Program-made: the position numbers and the translations under genes
Assembly (NCBI GenBank): GCA_964615385.1
Contig: CAZTMQ010000002.1
Span: forward strand, 1-37,242
Length of the DNA stretch: 37,242 nt
Source of the DNA: an uncultured Methanosarcinales archaeon
GTDB taxonomy: Archaea > Nanobdellota > Nanobdellia > Woesearchaeales > UBA119
Direction: 5' to 3'
In this document: in pieces, positions 3,270 through 35,598 of the stretch
Numbering within the stretch: the stretch's first letter is position 1
Layout: every line of letters starts with the position of its first letter
The notes under the pieces: model-generated
Seen by the model: only the letters and a program-made list of their open reading frames with translations
Database searches by the model: none
What the model was told of the DNA's origin: nothing

Positions 3270-3282
3270 ATAGGTGATTTTT

Positions 3283-3690
3283 ATGAACGAAAGAAGAGAA
3301 AATAATTCAAAGTGGGGAATTGCCTATATATATTCCTCTTATAATGACACCATTATTCACATTACTGATATATCCGGTAGCGAGACAATTGCAATAAGCT
3401 CTGGTGGACAAGTCGTTAAGGCTCATAGGCTTGAGTCTTCTCCAACGGCTGCAATGATCGCCGCAAAAAGAGCTGGTCAGTCTGCTATTGAGAAAGGGAT
3501 TACTGGTATTCATGTTAGAATCAGGGCAAAAGGAGGGCACAACGGCCCGATGTCGCCAGGCCCTGGAGCCCAAGCCGCTATCAGAGCACTTTCAAGAATA
3601 GGTCTAAGAATTGGACTTATCGAAGATGTTACTCCTGTTCCTCACGATGGGTGCAGAAAGAAAGGAGGAAAAAGGGGGAGGAGGGTCTAA
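3283..3690 (+). CDS. rps11: 30S ribosomal protein S11 (uS11)
   Basis: [19 protein letters not shown] and the GPG.QAAIRAL motif. ATG 3283 behind AGGTGA is preferred over the track start GTG 3274. Confidence 0.92.
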
Positions 3691-11293: not shown

Positions 11294-11553
11294 TTGATTT
11301 CATGAATCCGTCATTCGCATACTTTGGTCAATAGAAAAGCATACCTCGTTTTTCAACACGAGGACTCGGTACGCTTTTTTGTAATCAACAACCTCGCTGA
11401 ATACAGCACATGCTTTTATATTACCAACATACCTCGCCCTTTAGGGTGAGGTTGTTGATTTTTTAAGCCAAAGTAAGAATAGACGGATTCATGGACGAAA
11501 AACCTCGACTATCCACGAGATACCTCGACATTTATGCCGAGGTTTTTCATTTT
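11294..11553 (+). repeat. Structured repeat element, copy A (long form); possible ncRNA or cis-regulatory leader
   Basis: It shares both flanks with 26075..26204. The left arm GAATCCGTCATTCGCATACTTTGG (11304..11327) pairs with CCAAAGTAAGAATAGACGGATTC (11468..11490). About 135 nt lies between the arms and contains extra hairpins (CCTCGT/ACGAGG; ATCAACAACCTC/GAGGTTGTTGAT). The 3' module ACCTCG-N10-CGAGGT is followed by TTTTT. Confidence 0.8.
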
Positions 11554-11598
11554 AAAAAATTCAACAAAGTGAAAATTATTTTAAAGAGGTGTTTTAAG

Positions 11599-11973
11599 AT
11601 GAAAACTAAAAGCCCAAAGGGCACAACAAAGAAAAAGGCAGCTAACACAACGCTCAAGCAGGCCACAAAAAAGGTAGTATTATCAAAGCTTTGCGAGGAT
11701 GTTGGAGAAGATAAGAAGTTTTTAGTTGCAAATGGAGAGATCCTCTCAAATATCTGGGACCTAATCCATCTGCTGGACCATGTTGATGATTACACATTTT
11801 ATCATCACGTAAATGATGAAAAGAACGATTTTTACAATTGGATTAAGGAGATGTATGGTGATGGGGAATTTGAGAAGGTCATACTTCCAATAAGAAACCC
11901 AAAGGAATTAGAAATTGCAATCTTGAAGTATATAATCAATATGCTTTCAAAGGATAAGCAATTTAGCCTATAG
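11599..11973 (+). CDS. Small protein: lysine-rich N-terminus plus recurrent FxLxNG...HHVN..NDFxxW domain
   Basis: ATG 11599 follows AGAGGTG. The 5' part of track ORF 11491 lies inside the non-coding repeat element. Domain sequence: KKFLVANGEILSNIWDLIHLLDHVDDYTFYHHVNDEKNDFYNWIKEMY. Confidence 0.7.
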   Translation: MKTKSPKGTTKKKAANTTLKQATKKVVLSKLCEDVGEDKKFLVANGEILSNIWDLIHLLDHVDDYTFYHHVNDEKNDFYNWIKEMYGDGEFEKVILPIRNPKELEIAILKYIINMLSKDKQFSL

Positions 11974-12118
11974 TTAAAATAATTTTAGCGGTTTTCCCTT
12001 GGAGTTAGGATGCTTTTAGCACACAGGGATTTTATTTTAAATTAAGAGAGTGGTTTTAAAATAATTTTTTGCTTAACTTTTTGTAAGGGTTATGTTTTAA
12101 AAAATATCAAGAGGTGGT

Positions 12119-13921
12119 TTGGTTTTGGCAAGAGCCAATTTTGTATTTGAGGTATCCTGGGAAGTCTGCAATATGGTTGGTGGGATATATAGGGTAGTTG
12201 AATCCAAAGCGAGATACATGACTCAAAAATATGATAAATCGTATTTTCTTTTAGGCCCTTATTTCCCAGATAAAAATGTAGGCAACTTTGTTGAGGAGCC
12301 TATGCCTAAAACAATCAAAAAAATCTTTGAAACATTAAAGGCAAAAGGAATCACCTGTTACTTTGGAAAATGGAGAATCCCTGGTTCTCCTCAAACAATA
12401 TTAATAGATTTCTCAAAGGCGGGCTATCTAAATAATGAGATTAAAGGCAGGTACTGGAATAACTTTGGGATTGATTCGCTTAATACTAGCTACTACGATT
12501 ATGACGAGCCTATTCTTTGGTCAAGTTGCGCAGGAATGCTTATTGAGGAATTTCAAAAGGCAAGCCCTGAAAATAATATCGTAGCTCAGTTTCATGAGTG
12601 GCTTAGCGGAGGTGGAATTCTTCATCTTAAATCTATAAACTCAAAAGTTGCCTGTGTATTCACAACCCATGCAACTGTAATGGGAAGGGCCATCGCAGGC
12701 AAAAACATGGAAGTATTCTTCGAGGCACAAAGGATATCTGACTTTGATTTAGAGGCAAAGAAATACTCACTTTCTGCAAAGCACCTAACTGAAAAGGTAT
12801 GTGCAAATATATCTGAAATTTTCTCAACTGTTAGTGAGATAACATCAAAAGAAGCTGAAAAAATTCTATCAAAAAAAGCTGATATCGTTCTCGAAAATGG
12901 CATAAACCCATATTCTTACCCTACGTTCGAAGAAATATCTGTAAAGCATAAGAGCAACTGCGTAAAACAAAGAAAATTCATGATGGAGTACTTTTACCCA
13001 TATTATACATTCGATATTGAACAAACACTCACGTTTTTTATATCAAGCAGGTATGAATTCTATTCAAAGGGAATGAACATTCTCATCGAGGCGCTTTCAA
13101 TTTTAGACGAGAGGCTCAGAAGAGAGGATTATGAAAAAAAAATAGTGGTTTTCTTTTTTGTCCCCGCAGCAACTAAAGGAATTGACAATAACGTAATAAG
13201 ATCGAAGGTAATTTTTGATGATCTGCTTGAAACGATCAAAGAAAATAATCTTGAAATCACGCAAAGACTTACTTACTCACTACTTAAAGGGGCGAACGCT
13301 TCATATGAAGATATACTCGGGTCAGAGCTTTACGAAAACTTTATAGAATCTAGCAGGATGATTAAAAGAGTCGGAAATCCCCCACTGTCAACACACATAA
13401 TAGCTGATGAAAGTGATTCAATCATTTCAATGCTTAGACGAAAATCCCTTGTTAATTCGCAAGATAATATTGTTAAAACAATCTTTTATCCCATTTACCT
13501 AAACGGTCCAGATGGACTTTTGGATATGGATTATAATGAGGCAATCAGTGCAAGCCATTTAGCAATCTTCCCTTCAACTTACGAGCCGTGGGGCTACACT
13601 CCTTTAGAGGCAATATCCTGCGGTGTGCCTGCCATAACATCAAACCTTGCAGGCTATGGCAAATTCATCCTAGAAAAAGATGCACAAGATAAGGGAATTT
13701 TCGTTTTAGATTTTGAGAATAAAGGCTTTGAGGATCGTGCAATAGCCCTTGCCAAAAAGCTTTATTGGTACTGCTCACTTGATAGAAACCAAAGGGTTGA
13801 CATGAAAATTTTAGCAAAACAAACATCTAATCTTGCAAGTTGGGAAACTTTAGCAAACAAGTATTTTGAGGCGCACGAGATTGCCATTTCAAAAGCATTA
13901 TCAAAAAGAGGTGGCGCTTAG
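12119..13921 (+). CDS. GT3-family (animal/fungal-type) glycogen synthase
   Basis: FEVSWEVCNMVGGIYRVVESKA, HEWLSGGG, FTTHATVMGR and FPSTYEPWGYTPLEAISCGVPAITSNLAGYG closely mirror conserved blocks of eukaryotic glycogen synthase. The start is TTG at 12119 or TTG at 12125, behind GAGGTGG. Confidence 0.85.
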   Translation: MVLARANFVFEVSWEVCNMVGGIYRVVESKARYMTQKYDKSYFLLGPYFPDKNVGNFVEEPMPKTIKKIFETLKAKGITCYFGKWRIPGSPQTILIDFSKAGYLNNEIKGRYWNNFGIDSLNTSYYDYDEPILWSSCAGMLIEEFQKASPENNIVAQFHEWLSGGGILHLKSINSKVACVFTTHATVMGRAIAGKNMEVFFEAQRISDFDLEAKKYSLSAKHLTEKVCANISEIFSTVSEITSKEAEKILSKKADIVLENGINPYSYPTFEEISVKHKSNCVKQRKFMMEYFYPYYTFDIEQTLTFFISSRYEFYSKGMNILIEALSILDERLRREDYEKKIVVFFFVPAATKGIDNNVIRSKVIFDDLLETIKENNLEITQRLTYSLLKGANASYEDILGSELYENFIESSRMIKRVGNPPLSTHIIADESDSIISMLRRKSLVNSQDNIVKTIFYPIYLNGPDGLLDMDYNEAISASHLAIFPSTYEPWGYTPLEAISCGVPAITSNLAGYGKFILEKDAQDKGIFVLDFENKGFEDRAIALAKKLYWYCSLDRNQRVDMKILAKQTSNLASWETLANKYFEAHEIAISKALSKRGGA

Positions 13922-26074: not shown

Positions 26075-26204
26075 TTGATTTCGTGAATCCGTCATTCGCA
26101 TACTTTGGTTTTTCAAGCCGAAGTAAGAATAGACGGATTCACTTAACGATTAACCTCGACTATTCACGAGATACCTCGACATTTATGCCGAGGTTTTTCA
26201 TTTT
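26075..26204 (+). repeat. Structured repeat element, copy B (short form); possible ncRNA or cis-regulatory leader
   Basis: Arms 26085..26108 and 26118..26140 form a ~21-bp imperfect stem with a 9-nt loop. An A-to-G change relative to copy A keeps pairing as G-U. The 3' hairpin ACCTCG-N10-CGAGGT is followed by TTTTT. Confidence 0.8.
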
Positions 26205-26259
26205 TCTTTAATAAACTTTTGTGAAAAAGCTTTAATAAGGCTAGAAAATAATTTTGTGC

Positions 26260-26277
26260 TATTTTGCTAGCAAAATA
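26260..26277. promoter_or_regulatory. Perfect 18-bp palindrome, candidate operator upstream of the RHH gene
   Basis: TATTTTGCTAGCAAAATA is its own reverse complement. It lies ~190 bp upstream of the RHH start. A second inverted repeat CAGCTA-N9-TAGCTG follows ~35 bp downstream. Confidence 0.35.
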
Positions 26278-26465
26278 CTTTAATTTCAAAATATAGAAAT
26301 ATTTAAATAGCAGCTATGGCAAAAGCTAGCTGTGAGATTGCGTCCTATGAGAAGTTTTGCAATAATTTAGAAGGATTGCATACTTTTTCAAGGTCTTAGT
26401 AAAAAAAGTTAGAAAAAAAGATTCGCAGAAAAGTGATATCTTTTAAAAAAAGAAAAGAGATTTTT

Positions 26466-26646: not shown

Positions 26647-29600
26647 ATGCAAGCAAAAACAAAGGAAAGGATTGGGAAAATAGGGTTTAAGGCAATTACC
26701 ATTATCGGGGTGATGATGTTTTTATGCCTTATCCAATTGGGAAGTTCGTTTGAGTTTGCTATCTCTTCAGAAAGTCCAAATATATATGAAGATGAGACAC
26801 TTATTTTAAACCTTAGTATTTTAGAGGTAAATGGGACCCTTAACTTTACAAAAAATGTAAGCTTTGGAGAGCTAAATAAGGTAAATGAAACTCTCTTGCA
26901 ATTCAACTGGATTCCTGAGCAAGCATTGCTAACAAATAAAACAAATACATTCAGCGTACTTTTTAACGTATCAGATAACAGTTCATCGCTTAGTAAAGAA
27001 GTTACCATTACCGTTACTAAAAGAAATGACCCGCCTCGGATAATAAATTCTACTCTTGGAGGGCTTATTTACCAATCAAGAGCAGAGATATTTTTAGAAT
27101 TGGATAGACAATCCGTTTGTAAATATAGCCTTTCTAATAAGAGCTATAGCTCTATGGAATACACTTTCAATTCTGATGAAAGCAAAATAATCCACAATAC
27201 AACAACGCCTTTTATGTCTCAAGGCACTAAAAGAATCTATATTTTGTGCAGGGATTTTTCAGAAAACTACATGGAAACGCCACATGTGATAACCTTTGAT
27301 GTGAATCTTGCGCCAACTGCAGAAATCTATCTTGAGCCTTCTCCACCTCTAAAATCTGAAAGAGTATATGTTGAACTAATTGCATCAGAAGATCTTGCAA
27401 GCGCACCTGAATTAAGTTATATATTTGATGATGACTCAAGCCCTAAGATTGTATCGTTAGTTGGATCTAAAAGAAGATGGGAAGGTTATATGATAATTAG
27501 AGGAACCAATATTGAAAGAGTTGGTAGCTTCTCATTTAAGGGTGTCGATTTAACAGGGATTGAAGGTACTGAGATTACAAAGGGAAAATTGTTTTTAATA
27601 GATACAAATAAGCCAGGGCCTGTCCAAAGCATTGAGGTTACAAACCAGTACGATAGGACCAGGATCGCGTGGGCATACTCCCTTGAAAAGAATTATAATA
27701 TTGTCGAATACAGAATTTATAGAAGAGTAGATAGTGGGGGAGTGGATTATGTTGACTACTATAAAAGTACCTCCAATAACTATTTCTATGATAAGGACGT
27801 AGAATTCAAGAAGAGCTACTATTACAGGGTAAGTGCTGTTGATGATGCTGGAAATGAAGGAGAGCTTTCAAAGGAAGTATTTACCACTTTCATCCCAGAT
27901 TTACCTGAAGAAACTGTGGAAAATACTAATTCAGAAGAAGAGTACAAGTTAAGCCCAGCACTACAGATTGCTTTAGAAACAAAAATTGATGCGGTTGACA
28001 AAATAATTTTAGATCTTGAAAAACAAGAGGAATACTTCAAAAGGATTACTGGCACAGAGAATATTGAGGTTATTCAATCATTAGGGCTTATAAGCCAAGT
28101 TGCCTTTGCAAAAACAAAAGTGGAAGAGATAAAAGAAGACCTTGTTAATTTAAAATTGCATAACTTATCTGATGAGAACTTTGCAGACTCAGTGGATATG
28201 CTTTTAGCACAAGCTGAATTAGAATTCAATAAAGCACCATCCAAAATTACACTAATAGACTCATCCAGCTACCAGGAGTTTATTGATGAATCACTGATAA
28301 AAGAAATAGCAAACGAATATATCGATGCTGAAGGTAACGATATTATAGCTCTTGAAGAGCTTTTGGAAAACTCAATTTCCTTGCAGGAACAAATAACAGT
28401 TAATGCTTTGCTTATTGAATCAGAGATTACATATCCTAACCAAACACTAAATGTAAAAACTGTAAAGAAAACCCTAAATGCCAGGGAAACTATTAATAAC
28501 GCGATTATAGTAGAATCACTTCCAAAAAGCCTAGATTATGATTTTAGTTCTATGATTATTGATAGCGAGCCACTCCTAAATGAAGCAAACGATATGGTTT
28601 GGGAAGAGCCAAAGTTATCAAAAAAGACTATAGTGTATTCATTAGTGGATTATCCAGATTTCACAACGCTTAAAGAATCTAAGCTTGTTGTTCTTGGCAT
28701 AAAAAATGACGAAACTAATGTTTCAGATATTACAGGGCTTGCAATTTCCGAATCACAGGAGAAGATGAGCCCTTTGATAATTCCAATTATTATCGGTATC
28801 ATCCTTGCGGGCATATTAGGCGTTTATTACTTTGTTTCTTCAAGAAAGGATAACGAAAGCCAAATATCAAATCCATTTAACAGAGCAGAAAAAGAAAGCC
28901 TAAAAGAATTGCTAACCGATTTTCACATCGGCAAAAGAAAGCAATCTTATCCAAAGGCAAATGAAGATAAGAAAAAGCTTTTAAGAATTGAAGAAGAGGA
29001 AGTTGATTACAAAAAAAATAGTGGCTACGTATTTGATAAGAAGAGCGTTAGAAATACCCTAAATGAAACAGAATTGCTTGAATCTGAGCTAATTGATTCT
29101 ATCAAAGGAAAAGATTTGGATTATGATGGCGCTCATGAGCCAGCAATTGAGAAAAATAGATTTGGCTCCATAACTCAAAGCAACAGCAATCAAAACATTA
29201 ATACTAACAATAGTGCGTTTAACATCCCAAAAGGACCTACACCTGATCTGGATATACATAAAATATACCAACATATTTTAAAGTATAAAACAGCAGTAGA
29301 AGGGGGAAAAGATATCAATATTAAAGAAATGCAAGAGATAAAAGAAACCCTACAAAAAATCAAATCTACCTGTGATGAAATTGATAAGGCAAGGGTTGAA
29401 AGCTATACTGAAAAGGCAAAGAGCTATCTAAAAGAGACCTTAAAATATCTAGAGAGCATGGAATTTTCAAAAGATGTAAAAATAAAAGAAACAGCAACAA
29501 AAAGAAAGAAAAAATCACTTATTCAAAAGTCAAAACTAAGAGATTTAAGCTATATTAAACCCAAGAGAGCAAGGAGAGCAAGACTTCAGCCCGATAATAA

Positions 29601-29934
29601 CAAGGCGTTTAAAGACACATCAAGGCAAGTCGATAAGCCAAACTCCAAAGAACTTAAAGAGCGCCAAATAATACAAAAAATAGATATTCATCATATGGCT
29701 CCAGAAGATAAATTCTTTTCTCTTCAAAACGGAATTAGATTAAGAAATATTAATGAATTAGTAGACTACCTTGCTGTAATTGATAAGGAGTTATTTTGGC
29801 AACATGCAAACTTCTCAAAAAATGACTTTGCAACATGGATTAGGGATGTTTTTAATGCAAAAGAGCTTTCAAATGAAATAGAAAGGGCTCTTGACCCAAA
29901 AGAGATGAGAGAAAGAATAATTAAATTCTTTTAA
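26647..29934 (+). CDS. Large bitopic surface protein: Fn3-containing ectodomain, TM helix, cytoplasmic tail ending in the recurrent domain
   Basis: N-terminal signal/anchor, an NDPPRI cadherin-like motif, and a fibronectin-III-like block (YRIYRR...YYYRVSAVDDAGNEG). The TM helix is PLIIPIIIGIILAGILGVYYFV. A ~350-aa K/E-rich tail ends in DKFFSLQNG...FSKNDFATWIRDVF. Confidence 0.75.
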   Translation: MQAKTKERIGKIGFKAITIIGVMMFLCLIQLGSSFEFAISSESPNIYEDETLILNLSILEVNGTLNFTKNVSFGELNKVNETLLQFNWIPEQALLTNKTNTFSVLFNVSDNSSSLSKEVTITVTKRNDPPRIINSTLGGLIYQSRAEIFLELDRQSVCKYSLSNKSYSSMEYTFNSDESKIIHNTTTPFMSQGTKRIYILCRDFSENYMETPHVITFDVNLAPTAEIYLEPSPPLKSERVYVELIASEDLASAPELSYIFDDDSSPKIVSLVGSKRRWEGYMIIRGTNIERVGSFSFKGVDLTGIEGTEITKGKLFLIDTNKPGPVQSIEVTNQYDRTRIAWAYSLEKNYNIVEYRIYRRVDSGGVDYVDYYKSTSNNYFYDKDVEFKKSYYYRVSAVDDAGNEGELSKEVFTTFIPDLPEETVENTNSEEEYKLSPALQIALETKIDAVDKIILDLEKQEEYFKRITGTENIEVIQSLGLISQVAFAKTKVEEIKEDLVNLKLHNLSDENFADSVDMLLAQAELEFNKAPSKITLIDSSSYQEFIDESLIKEIANEYIDAEGNDIIALEELLENSISLQEQITVNALLIESEITYPNQTLNVKTVKKTLNARETINNAIIVESLPKSLDYDFSSMIIDSEPLLNEANDMVWEEPKLSKKTIVYSLVDYPDFTTLKESKLVVLGIKNDETNVSDITGLAISESQEKMSPLIIPIIIGIILAGILGVYYFVSSRKDNESQISNPFNRAEKESLKELLTDFHIGKRKQSYPKANEDKKKLLRIEEEEVDYKKNSGYVFDKKSVRNTLNETELLESELIDSIKGKDLDYDGAHEPAIEKNRFGSITQSNSNQNINTNNSAFNIPKGPTPDLDIHKIYQHILKYKTAVEGGKDINIKEMQEIKETLQKIKSTCDEIDKARVESYTEKAKSYLKETLKYLESMEFSKDVKIKETATKRKKKSLIQKSKLRDLSYIKPKRARRARLQPDNNKAFKDTSRQVDKPNSKELKERQIIQKIDIHHMAPEDKFFSLQNGIRLRNINELVDYLAVIDKELFWQHANFSKNDFATWIRDVFNAKELSNEIERALDPKEMRERIIKFF

Positions 29935-34128: not shown

Positions 34129-34422
34129 ATGAGAAATTTCTTGTCGGATTGTGAACCGGAAAGTGCATTTTGGTCAACTAATGGGGTTGTTTGCAGAAAC
34201 CTAAATGAGCTTTTGCTTTGCATAAAGGGCCTTAATGAAAGCGACTTTAGATATCACGTCAATCAAGACAACAAAAAGAATGATTTTGCAAAATGGATTT
34301 TAGAGGTTATTGGAGATGAAGTTTTGGCTAGGGCACTATCCGCAGTATTAGATAAGGACTTATATGCTGATATCATAGAACAAAGAATGAAACACCTCGA
34401 GTCGGATTATAAAGCTTACTAA
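34129..34422 (+). CDS. Stand-alone recurrent-domain protein (97 aa)
   Basis: ESAFWSTNGVVCRNLNELLLCIKGLNESDFRYHVNQDNKKNDFAKWILEVIGDE is essentially only the domain. Confidence 0.65.
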   Translation: MRNFLSDCEPESAFWSTNGVVCRNLNELLLCIKGLNESDFRYHVNQDNKKNDFAKWILEVIGDEVLARALSAVLDKDLYADIIEQRMKHLESDYKAY

Positions 34423-34440: not shown

Positions 34441-35598
34441 CTAAAATTCTCGAATAATCTTTATCATTTCACTAGGGCTCTTGGCATTTTTTATATGATC
34501 CGCAATCTCACGATAGGAAAATACATGCTCAACCCACGTAGAAAAATCATTTCTCTCCTCATTAACATGGTGCCTAAAAACTTCTTCATCCATCTTTGAA
34601 AGCTCATATAACAAATCCTCTACGCTATAAAGCAAAACCCCATTTTGAAGCCGAAATGCCTTATCAGAAGTGGTCTTTTTTCCAAGCATTCTGAATTTTT
34701 CAGCATTTCTAATAACATTCTTGAATCGGGCAAGCTTTTTTTCAATCTCGCTTTCCTTCTCAAGTAAAAGGTTTCTAGCACTCTCAAATTCCCTGCTTCG
34801 TATAAGCCACTCAGATTCGAGTTCTCTTAATTCTAAAAGATAACTATATACCACATCATCAATATCCTTCTCGCCTAAGAAAAAATGCCTCCCGCTTTTA
34901 AGTGATTCATGATAATCTTTCATTTTATGCAAAAGCCCAGAACTAATAGTTGAATAAAGCTCGCTTTTCTCCTCGTTAAATCTTCTTTCTAGCTCTTTAA
35001 AAAAGGAAATAGAGGCCCTTTCATTTTGGGCTTGCATTCTTTCATCAATCAAGTTTGTTTCTTTAGGATTATTATTTCTGTCAAAATTCCATTTTTTTGA
35101 TTGGGAGCTATCTTCAAAACTGTTAGACTCTAAAGGATTTGTCCCTTTATAGACTGAATTGCTTGAATTACTGCGATAATTATCTTCATTTTTCTTATAA
35201 AAATCAAAGGGATTATTAGTTTCTCCCGATGATCGATTTGAGTTCCCAACTGTGTTTAACCTGGAATAATCATAAGGCTGGCTCTCAGTTGGTCTCGTAC
35301 TCTTGGAAGAATCTGCATTTTCATCAACTGAAATACTTATTCCTTTGATCTCGGGGCTCACCAGGTTCTCAGGAAGCCTTCTTGGTTCGTTATGTTCATT
35401 TGAACCACTAAATCCACGATTTGTCCTTTCAAGATTTTGCCCATCAGACATTTGAGATGGTCCAATTGGGTCTTTGGTGTAATCCCCCCTATCAAAAGCC
35501 ATATTTTTATCCATTGTAGTATCAGGAAGACTCGGAGGTACATCTAAAGAAACAGATTTATCTTTCCCCTTACCATTAAAACCTAAAAACGAAACCAT
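34441..35598 (-). CDS. Cytoplasmic protein: disordered N/S-rich region, coiled coil, C-terminal recurrent domain
   Basis: No signal peptide or TM helix. About 190 aa are low-complexity and the middle is helical. The C-terminus DKAFRLQNGVLLYSVEDLLYELSKMDEEVFRHHVNEERNDFSTWVEHVF is very similar to the tail of the 1095-aa protein. Confidence 0.65.
   Translation of the reverse strand: MVSFLGFNGKGKDKSVSLDVPPSLPDTTMDKNMAFDRGDYTKDPIGPSQMSDGQNLERTNRGFSGSNEHNEPRRLPENLVSPEIKGISISVDENADSSKSTRPTESQPYDYSRLNTVGNSNRSSGETNNPFDFYKKNEDNYRSNSSNSVYKGTNPLESNSFEDSSQSKKWNFDRNNNPKETNLIDERMQAQNERASISFFKELERRFNEEKSELYSTISSGLLHKMKDYHESLKSGRHFFLGEKDIDDVVYSYLLELRELESEWLIRSREFESARNLLLEKESEIEKKLARFKNVIRNAEKFRMLGKKTTSDKAFRLQNGVLLYSVEDLLYELSKMDEEVFRHHVNEERNDFSTWVEHVFSYREIADHIKNAKSPSEMIKIIREF

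Follow-up and report, generated by a model that had tools for sequence, protein, structure and literature searches.

We analysed a 37,242-nt stretch of archaeal DNA (contig CAZTMQ010000002.1 of assembly GCA_964615385.1, placed in the Woesearchaeales by GTDB; hereafter, the window), in which a hairpin-rich element is present as a long form, copy A (11294-11553), and a short form, copy B (26075-26204). Our results suggest that both copies are probably non-coding, non-autonomous transposable elements of Woesearchaeota, which resemble the palindrome-associated transposable elements (PATEs) of haloarchaea and would be moved by an IS200/IS605-type HUH transposase. An earlier reading of the window, made without database searches (the sequence-only reading), had offered three candidate roles for the element; the miniature mobile element with a nested insertion has held up in our analysis, whereas the small structured RNA and the shared cis-regulatory leader have not. 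The window itself is an archaeal contig that encodes L15e, S13, S4, S11, RpoD, L18e, L13, S9 and SRP54, together with a glycogen cluster, ThyX, QueA/QueH and surface proteins.

Target motif, precise insertion and nesting

Almost all architectures of the element could be accounted for by two units, named S and I here. These units are located directly 3' of TTGATT or, more loosely, of TTNATT, and their orientation is fixed relative to this motif. TTGATT was found before 21 of the 43 unique left junctions of S (background 0.13% per position) and TTNATT before 15 of the 22 junctions of I in unique DNA, and conservation of the target TTGA was confined to the element's left side.

A filled and an empty site could be compared at locus L026. 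Its composite (1003-1254), which is identical to copy A at 241 of 252 positions, lies between two open reading frames (ORFs) of the same frame that, when joined, give a match to the AP_endonuc_2 TIM-barrel profile extending over the junction; intact orthologues of 247 aa show 87% (DAOSEK Woesearchaeota) and 74% identity. Along the element's top strand, the empty sites of the orthologues (L050 and L053) read CCCTTGATT^TTTTAGGCAT, that is, CCCTTGATT^TTTTAGG, and the filled site of L026 reads CCCTTGATT(TCATGAATCC...GGTTTTTCATT)TTTTAGGCAT, that is, CCCTTGATT(TCATGAA...TTTTTCATT)TTTTAGG (the caret marks the junction and brackets enclose the element). Because TTGATT pre-exists in the empty site, it belongs to the target DNA and not to the element. 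The insertion was precise, the number of T residues (2+4 = 6) being the same as in the empty site, and no duplication was detectable. The sequence-only reading had regarded target-site duplications around scattered copies as the mark of a miniature inverted-repeat transposable element (MITE); the insertions found here are target-specific and without detectable duplication, which suggests a transposition chemistry different from that of a MITE. At the same locus, the element ends supply an immediate in-frame TGA (…AAA AAA TGA) to the upstream half of the gene and an in-frame ATG (ATG AAA TCA AGG…) to the downstream half, and the two halves consequently remain ORFs of 131 and 118 aa.

Nested copies were found in both directions. 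Copy A is a unit S with I placed seamlessly in its stem loop (GGTC^AATAG...GTTGATT^TTTYAAGCC), the uninterrupted S loop of solo copies being GGTC^TTTCAAGCC / GGTCTTTCAAGCC. Elsewhere, the most frequent architecture (10 loci) is S inside I, likewise without a seam, at GTTGATT^ACAAAAAAGC; this insertion site is intact in copy A and in solo copies of I, and I stands alone at L008, L017, L033, L041 and L027. Head-to-tail arrays were identified at L027 (I-S-S-S) and also at L023, L048 and L022, and hybrid units combine either the left end of S with the right end of I (a5-I, for example L003 3784-3970) or the left end of I with the right end of S (I-a3-h3; L048, L030 and L027). The end of a unit recreates the target, which accounts for the arrays and the nesting. 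We also considered that S might be a hairpin inserted into a terminal-only PATE, which found no support since diverged copies keep the stem region.

Copies in the window and anatomy of the units

A repeat finder identified three blocks common to copies A and B, namely 11294-11328 versus 26075-26109 (35 nt, 97% identity), 11455-11491 versus 26105-26141 (37 nt, 92% identity) and 11495-11553 versus 26146-26204 (59 nt, 95% identity), with the similarity ending abruptly on either side. The near-identical flanks described in the sequence-only reading were thus recovered with sharp ends, and the extra insert that it had noticed in the loop of copy A was present with a length of 131 nt instead of approximately 135 nt. 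Its counts of the (A)TACCTCG motif (five in copy A and two in copy B) were reproduced for ACCTCG on the forward strand. ACCTCG has 13 matches in total in the window versus 4.0 expected, and the exact octamer ATACCTCG is found three times in copy A and once in copy B. A profile search of the window for further copies yielded copies A and B only.

Copy B is a solo unit S of 122 nt on the forward strand (26081-26202; TCGTGAATCC...GAGGTTTTTCATT), with its right-end hairpin at 26173-26194 and a TTGATT target motif on its 5' side (26075-26080). Copy A lies on the same strand and is preceded by TTGATT at 11294-11299, a part of the flank outside the element that pre-exists in empty sites and in uninterrupted I. 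It begins with the left part of unit S, from the 5' stem arm to the loop (11300-11329; TCATGAATCCGTCATTCGCATACTTTGGTC), and continues with the 131-nt unit I inside the S loop (11330-11460), a unit that is solo at several loci and interrupted by S at those with the commonest architecture. Half Q' of unit I (11330-11382) has the left-end hairpin ACCTCGTTTTTCAACACGAGGA at 11343-11364, and half P' (11383-11460) has the 13-bp inverted repeats AATCAACAACCTC/GAGGTTGTTGATT, the right-end hairpin ACCTCGCCCTTTAGGGTGAGGT at 11431-11452 and the terminus TGTTGATT. The remainder of copy A is the right part of unit S (11461-11551), which comprises the rest of the loop, the 3' stem arm and a 3' module with the ACCTCG repeat, and in which the right-end hairpin ACCTCGACATTTATGCCGAGGT (11522-11543) is followed by TTTTCATT.

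In general, unit S (122-134 nt) starts with TCRTGAA... and a long interrupted inverted repeat, followed by AACCTCGACT...GATACCTCGGCATTTATGCCGAGGT and then TTTTCATT, and unit I (~131 nt) reads AATAGAAAAGCAT-(ACCTCGTG...CACGAGGA)...(ACCTCGCCCTTTAGGGTGAGGT)-TGTTGATT. The most conserved stretch of the element family is GAGGTTTTTCATT. S terminates in TTCATT and I in TTGATT, in each case 8 nt past a hairpin of the form ACCTCG-(loop TTTA)-CGAGGT. The two hairpins of unit I, both with stems ACCTCG...CGAGG, are located 13 nt from its start and 8 nt from its end. Unit S fits the same near-terminal palindrome pattern at its right end but has the long inverted repeat in its left end. S and I have a common architecture of hairpin plus 8 nt at their right ends and different left ends. 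The inverted match between the element termini is limited to 5 nt (ATGAA/TTCAT). The units are too short for a transposase gene, and the sole ORF across copy A (from 11491) results from extending the 124-aa gene that follows it too far; orthologues of this gene encode 124-128 aa, with the ATG at 11599 as their start, in agreement with the earlier suspicion that the ORF is not translated through copy A. At L035 (~3280-3390), an S variant has four tandem copies of 13 nt from the 3' module (CATTTAACCTCAA) directly before the right-end hairpin.

Dispersal across Woesearchaeota

For comparison, we used approximately 0.43 Mb of other Woesearchaeota sequence. The 24-nt core of the 5' arm had four exact copies on three contigs of the metagenome-assembled genome Candidatus Woesearchaeota DAOSEK01, all with flanks unrelated to the window. 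A second search pattern was derived from the 3' module alone (CTCRAC-N9-GATACYTC-N12-GAGGTTTTT), with the stem excluded from ascertainment, and matched 44 metagenome stretches, with up to six matches on one 122-kb contig. Mapping of six modules, with loci called distinct by flank clustering, revealed 92 composites at 54 distinct loci and more than 20 architectures. Only the short contigs L001 and L032 were co-linear with the window, and no other locus shared its flanks; the site of copy B is filled likewise in L032, which is 97% identical.

Except at a few loci, the composites occupy the spaces between long ORFs; where an overlap was apparent, it mostly involved an over-extended ORF, and one composite (L026) splits a gene. 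On the 3' side of S, the next gene was co-directional 46 times and convergent 30 times; on the 5' side, it was co-directional 36 times and divergent 39 times. No significant orientation bias of S relative to its neighbouring genes could be observed. Pfam assigned these neighbours to housekeeping functions, among them DnaJ/DnaK/GrpE, several aminoacyl-tRNA synthetases and ELP3. Between genomes, the elements are approximately 90-96% identical, as against 56% identity for an orthologous protein pair at a syntenic locus in another population, a difference between sequences that suggests recent activity or exchange of the elements.

Proposed mechanism and relation to known elements

A one-sided 5' target without detectable duplication or terminal inverted repeats, together with subterminal hairpins near the right tip, interchangeable ends and heavy nesting, constitutes the signature of IS200/IS605-type elements and PATEs, and the PATEs of Haloquadratum show all of the structural features (PMC3119063). 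By analogy with these systems, we infer IS200/IS605-type mobilization of the elements. A Y1 HUH transposase of this type would mobilize the units in trans as single-stranded DNA (peel and paste), and the hairpins would serve as its binding sites on DNA rather than as RNA structures. If neighbouring genes were affected, such as by termination at the T5 run that follows the right-end hairpin, this would be incidental.

The best-studied models of this mechanism offer close parallels. ISDra2 inserts 3' of TTGAT by means of subterminal hairpins and single-stranded DNA (PMC2806898), and the cleavage sites of IS608 pair with a guide tetranucleotide located 5' of each hairpin (PMC5934647). The Woesearchaeota units likewise insert 3' of a fixed penta- or hexanucleotide (TTGAT in ISDra2, TTGAT(T) here; PMC2806898), and they also have subterminal hairpins and insert seamlessly, and the site of right-end cleavage would lie 3' of the hairpin by a few nt (PMC2806898, PMC5934647). 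On the other hand, no tnpA/tnpB was found in the 0.43 Mb or the window, and the hairpins differ in sequence from those of ISDra2 and IS608, to which they are unrelated. S carries the tetranucleotide AGAT 5' of its right hairpin and has the tip TCATT, and I carries ACAT there and has the tip TGATT; this exchange of G/C for C/G at corresponding guide and tip positions, seen in two unit types only, is a suggestive counterpart of the pairing between guide and cleavage site.

Haloarchaeal PATEs lack inverted terminal repeats, have near-terminal palindromes and a target of 4-6 nt, do not duplicate the target and are frequently nested (PMC3119063). They are derived from IS200/IS605 (IS605/IS1341-type) transposons (Dyall-Smith et al. 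2011, PMC3119063) and, like S and I, are too short to encode a protein and reside in an archaeal host. Further features in common are, for unit I, a longer 5' than 3' spacing of the palindromes (13 versus 8 nt) and, for the family, a short 5' targeting oligonucleotide, a conserved terminal oligonucleotide and frequent insertion into other mobile elements. The differences are that the host here belongs to the DPANN Woesearchaeota, that the likeness is drawn from structure, that neither a parent IS605-type transposon nor TnpA/TnpB was found in the 0.43 Mb and the window, that the left end of S is dominated by an interrupted inverted repeat of approximately 26 bp, and that each of the two unit types nests in the other. 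In Haloquadratum, mobile elements preferentially target one another (PMC3119063). One of them, SMR-A, is like S approximately 110 bp long with a prominent inverted repeat and no target duplication, and prefers PATEs or IS605-type ends beside palindromes, just as S sits in I (PMC3119063). The inverted repeats of SMR-A are terminal, whereas that of S precedes a 55-nt 3' module. On the basis of these comparisons, we consider it likely that the units form a new family of PATE-like elements in DPANN archaea (Woesearchaeota) with two reciprocally nesting unit types. No description of such elements in Woesearchaeota or other DPANN archaea was found in the literature searched.

It should be noted that several observations weigh against PATE-like transposition. 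First, the insertion of I in the S loop follows TTGGTC or TTGGCA and not TTNATT. Second, S has no counterpart of the ACCTCG hairpin that I carries close to its left end, the inverted repeat of S starting from approximately nt 2. Third, the targets end in TT, with which a T duplication of 1-2 bp is formally compatible, and beyond the nested cases a search among the loci gave one orthologous pair of filled and empty sites, that of L026. Finally, a six-frame HUH...Y scan of the 0.43 Mb gave no match to an ORF with a Y1 HUH motif, all-against-all ORF clustering revealed no recurrent gene family next to the loci, and a Pfam search of all window ORFs identified no transposase, the flanking ORFs likewise containing housekeeping genes only. 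Viral contigs were also scanned with the right ends of S and I, and nothing was found except one chance match in a coding region.

These elements have practical consequences for genome analysis. Hairpin-rich blocks of 120-260 nt in Woesearchaeota and other DPANN genomes should be masked as repeats in annotation and not be called small RNAs, leaders or ORFs. The elements also break assemblies, since contigs L001, L060 and L014 end in or beside them. The results point to active, TTGATT-specific and apparently duplication-free transposition in small DPANN genomes, including gene disruption and reciprocal nesting. The pair of target and end motifs together with the hairpin provides a handle to search for the responsible HUH transposase, and the target would be a candidate transposon-adjacent target motif (TAM) if TnpB is associated.

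Alternative explanations

Published PATEs often encode omega RNAs, the guide RNAs of TnpB (PMC10055086). It is conceivable, if improbable, that each S is a stand-alone omega-RNA-like guide-RNA gene left by an IS200/IS605-type element. The long stem and the 3' hairpin would then form a scaffold, the transcript would read past ...TTCATT into the flank, and a TnpB-like nuclease encoded elsewhere would recognize TTGAT(T) plus the flank and promote retention or homing of the copies. A TATA-like box (TAATATAAAAG) in P, approximately 35 nt upstream, could drive S in P-S-Q composites, and the mutual nesting of S and I would be a by-product of a common TAM and transposon-encoded end motif (TEM). If true, this would be the first RNA-guided transposon-maintenance system in DPANN archaea.

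Another explanation with a low probability of about the same order keeps HUH chemistry and assumes a long-term, vertically inherited resident system, in which repeats like the repetitive extragenic palindromes (REPs) of bacteria, or their doublets (REPINs), are kept by a single-copy, domesticated REP-associated tyrosine transposase (RAYT). As in bacterial REPs, the bacterial interspersed mosaic elements (BIMEs) composed of them and REPINs, the units are extragenic and palindromic, occur in many mosaic orders and orientations and have a presumed HUH Y1 enzyme (PMC3116915, PMC3733652); in addition, the inverted doublet of S resembles a REPIN (PMC3116915), the 0.43 Mb contains no autonomous partner of insertion sequence (IS) type, and the family is present in several related lineages. 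However, no RAYT was seen in the same 0.43 Mb, and units of 120-130 nt with distinct ends and a defined 5' target, as in IS200/IS605, are much longer than REPs of 20-40 bp. The insertion into a coding gene and the high element identity across genomes with diverged proteins argue for recent transposon-like activity instead, and such systems are described for bacteria in the literature searched, whereas the host here is an archaeon.

More doubtful still is a classical MITE that depends on a DDE transposase; its terminal inverted repeats would be very short (CATGAA...TTCATT), and its 2-bp duplication of TT would be cryptic. The 5-nt inverted match of the termini could be taken for such repeats, a target that ends in TT lets the comparison of filled and empty sites accommodate a TT duplication, and DDE-type IS elements are present in these genomes, such as the 1-kb IS of L043. 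However, at least 10 bp of inverted repeat would be expected, no duplication is detectable, and the conservation of TTGA on the left side only is an asymmetry not expected for symmetric DDE integration. Besides, the right ends of S and I are alike and their left ends different, and hybrid units and head-to-tail arrays fit single-strand HUH transposition better. The IS of L043 (10397-11397) is an unrelated classical element of approximately 1 kb that is absent in L040 and thus polymorphic between 99%-identical strains; it is bounded by 12-bp terminal inverted repeats (GGCTCTGTAGAA), has duplicated 9 bp of its target (ATTGTTATT) and contains a transposase-like ORF of 312 aa, which means that DDE-type IS elements with duplications move in these genomes too.

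Very unlikely, in our view, is a small structured RNA or shared cis-regulatory leader, according to which the core of approximately 130 nt would be transcribed, end at the hairpin plus T5 and regulate the downstream genes for a recurrent domain. Both copies do fold very stably. Copy B forms a long interrupted stem and a 3' hairpin (-48.3 kcal/mol, z = -8.05 versus shuffled controls), and copy A has the outer stem of copy B with additional hairpins within (-97.8 kcal/mol, z = -12.2 versus shuffled controls). The reverse complements fold about equally well (z = -7.5 for copy B and -11.0 for copy A), and this near-equality of the strands is the behaviour of a DNA palindrome and not specific to RNA. 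In copy B and its orthologue in L032 the forward strand is favoured by approximately 7 kcal/mol, consistent with G-U pairs. Across copies, however, no difference in folding between the two strands was observed (Wilcoxon test; whole unit, p = 0.96; stem, p = 0.47; 3' module, p = 0.18). The A/G change in the stem arm, which had been noted to preserve pairing through a G-U pair, is therefore real for the A/B pair and not a general signal across the copies. In favour of this explanation, the T5 run at the end of the element would terminate transcription in archaea.

Comparative evidence also argues against an RNA. The sequence-only reading had proposed to count copies and to look for structural covariation and for an Rfam family. 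The copies are scattered over approximately 54 loci and no covariation was recovered: RNAalifold on 25 distinct S copies did not recover the long stem and retained no more than an AACCTCG/CGAGGTT pairing of 7 bp, the stability of the long stem falls from approximately -33 to approximately -10 kcal/mol in diverged copies, and three variants of the 5' arm have no compensating change in the 3' arm. Rfam gave no match at the gathering score in the whole window, and nothing credible at E <= 10 around both copies (best 24 bits versus a cut-off of 47 bits). Two related ideas were rejected. The antisense match between 11375-11395 in the insert of copy A and 28996-29016 in the 1095-aa gene (19 of 21 positions complementary) was on a par with chance pairs and is regarded as a coincidence. 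An archaeal bulge-helix-bulge intron, suggested by the 4-bp helix between bulges and by the copy inside a gene, was set aside by reasoning alone: the bulges are of 1 nt and 3x1 instead of 3+3, and splicing would leave the 3' module in the mRNA and not restore the frame of L026.

The position of the copies in the window, both upstream and on the same strand of genes or operons encoding a DUF5752-like domain, had been the basis for a proposed regulatory link to the genes for this domain. The domain is present four times in the window (11599-11973, 29700-29934, 34129-34422 and, in the C-terminal part, 34441-35598), and one of these copies matches Pfam DUF5752 (E = 8.8e-7). However, tblastn detected no DUF5752-like domain at element loci L001-L049 except in L001, which has a copy of the window's own gene. 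Downstream of copy A is a small gene for a 124-aa DUF5752-like protein (11599-11973, forward strand), a neighbour only, which in several relatives is part of a conserved glycogen cluster (GT, GH57, the small protein, glycogen synthase, GalT-like protein and debranching enzyme). In syntenic glycogen clusters its orthologues are 85% (L055) and 72% (L057) identical, and the spacers between GH57 and the small gene (188 nt in L055 and 118 nt in L057) contain no element. The sole upstream conservation in the element-free L055/L056 and L057 is in the last ~35 nt before the ATG, which correspond to 11560-11598 of the window (GTGAAAATTATTTTAAAGAGGTGTT...), the promoter and ribosome-binding region of the small gene downstream of copy A and outside the element. 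The 98%-identical orthologue of L060 does have the element, and the contig breaks inside it.

A similar picture emerged for copy B, which lies upstream of an operon of a ribbon-helix-helix (RHH) gene and the 1095-aa gene. At the corresponding 591-aa/RHH/1107-aa locus of another population (56% identity), a long-form composite is present in the same intergenic region and in the opposite orientation. Three composites of L062 (728-998, 3086-3392 and 7324-7492) lie within 11 kb around this orthologous RHH/1107-aa operon, a very high density. The pattern at the RHH locus fits repeated insertion into permissive spacers and not a conserved leader. The stop codon of the 1107-aa gene is exactly where one of the three L062 composites begins. 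Given also that every gene-orientation context is seen and that one copy interrupts a coding gene (L026), the RNA or leader explanation was already largely refuted by the missing positional conservation. The link between the element and DUF5752-like neighbouring genes is coincidental, and a tempting but false association is thereby removed.

Finally, att-site direct repeats bounding a 14.8-kb integrated element, as might be imagined from two direct repeats in one orientation 14.8 kb apart, have practically no chance of being correct and are refuted by the copy distribution, since the repeats are found at more than 50 unrelated loci, the interval contains glycogen metabolism, ThyX, QueA and QueH and no integrase, and the orthologous cluster of L055 is contiguous without a repeat.

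Other strain differences and a putative operator

Comparison of closely related strains revealed further differences besides the IS of L043; the other strain indels involve variable genes. The 99%-identical strains L005 (2659-4339) and L019 (765-822) differ in a 1.7-kb segment that holds a composite and a gene for 334 aa; in its place, L019 has 56 nt, which open with an S-like remnant (TGATTATTTCATGAAAATG). This difference may have resulted from repeat-mediated deletion or recombination. Contig L001 (526-532), also 99% identical, is without approximately 120 nt of the window (12106-12225) between short AAAATAT repeats. The glycogen synthase gene loses its annotated start through this gap, which represents either a strain deletion or an assembly artefact.

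Downstream of copy B, a perfect 18-bp palindrome (TATTTTGCTAGCAAAATA, 26260-26277) is followed by AAATATAGAAATATTTAAATAGC within the stretch 26258-26320. This stretch is conserved almost base for base in L062 (3648-3710), where the orthologue of the 1095-aa protein is only 56% identical, and it is likely to be the real operator/promoter of the RHH (HicB/CopG-like) and 1095-aa operon.

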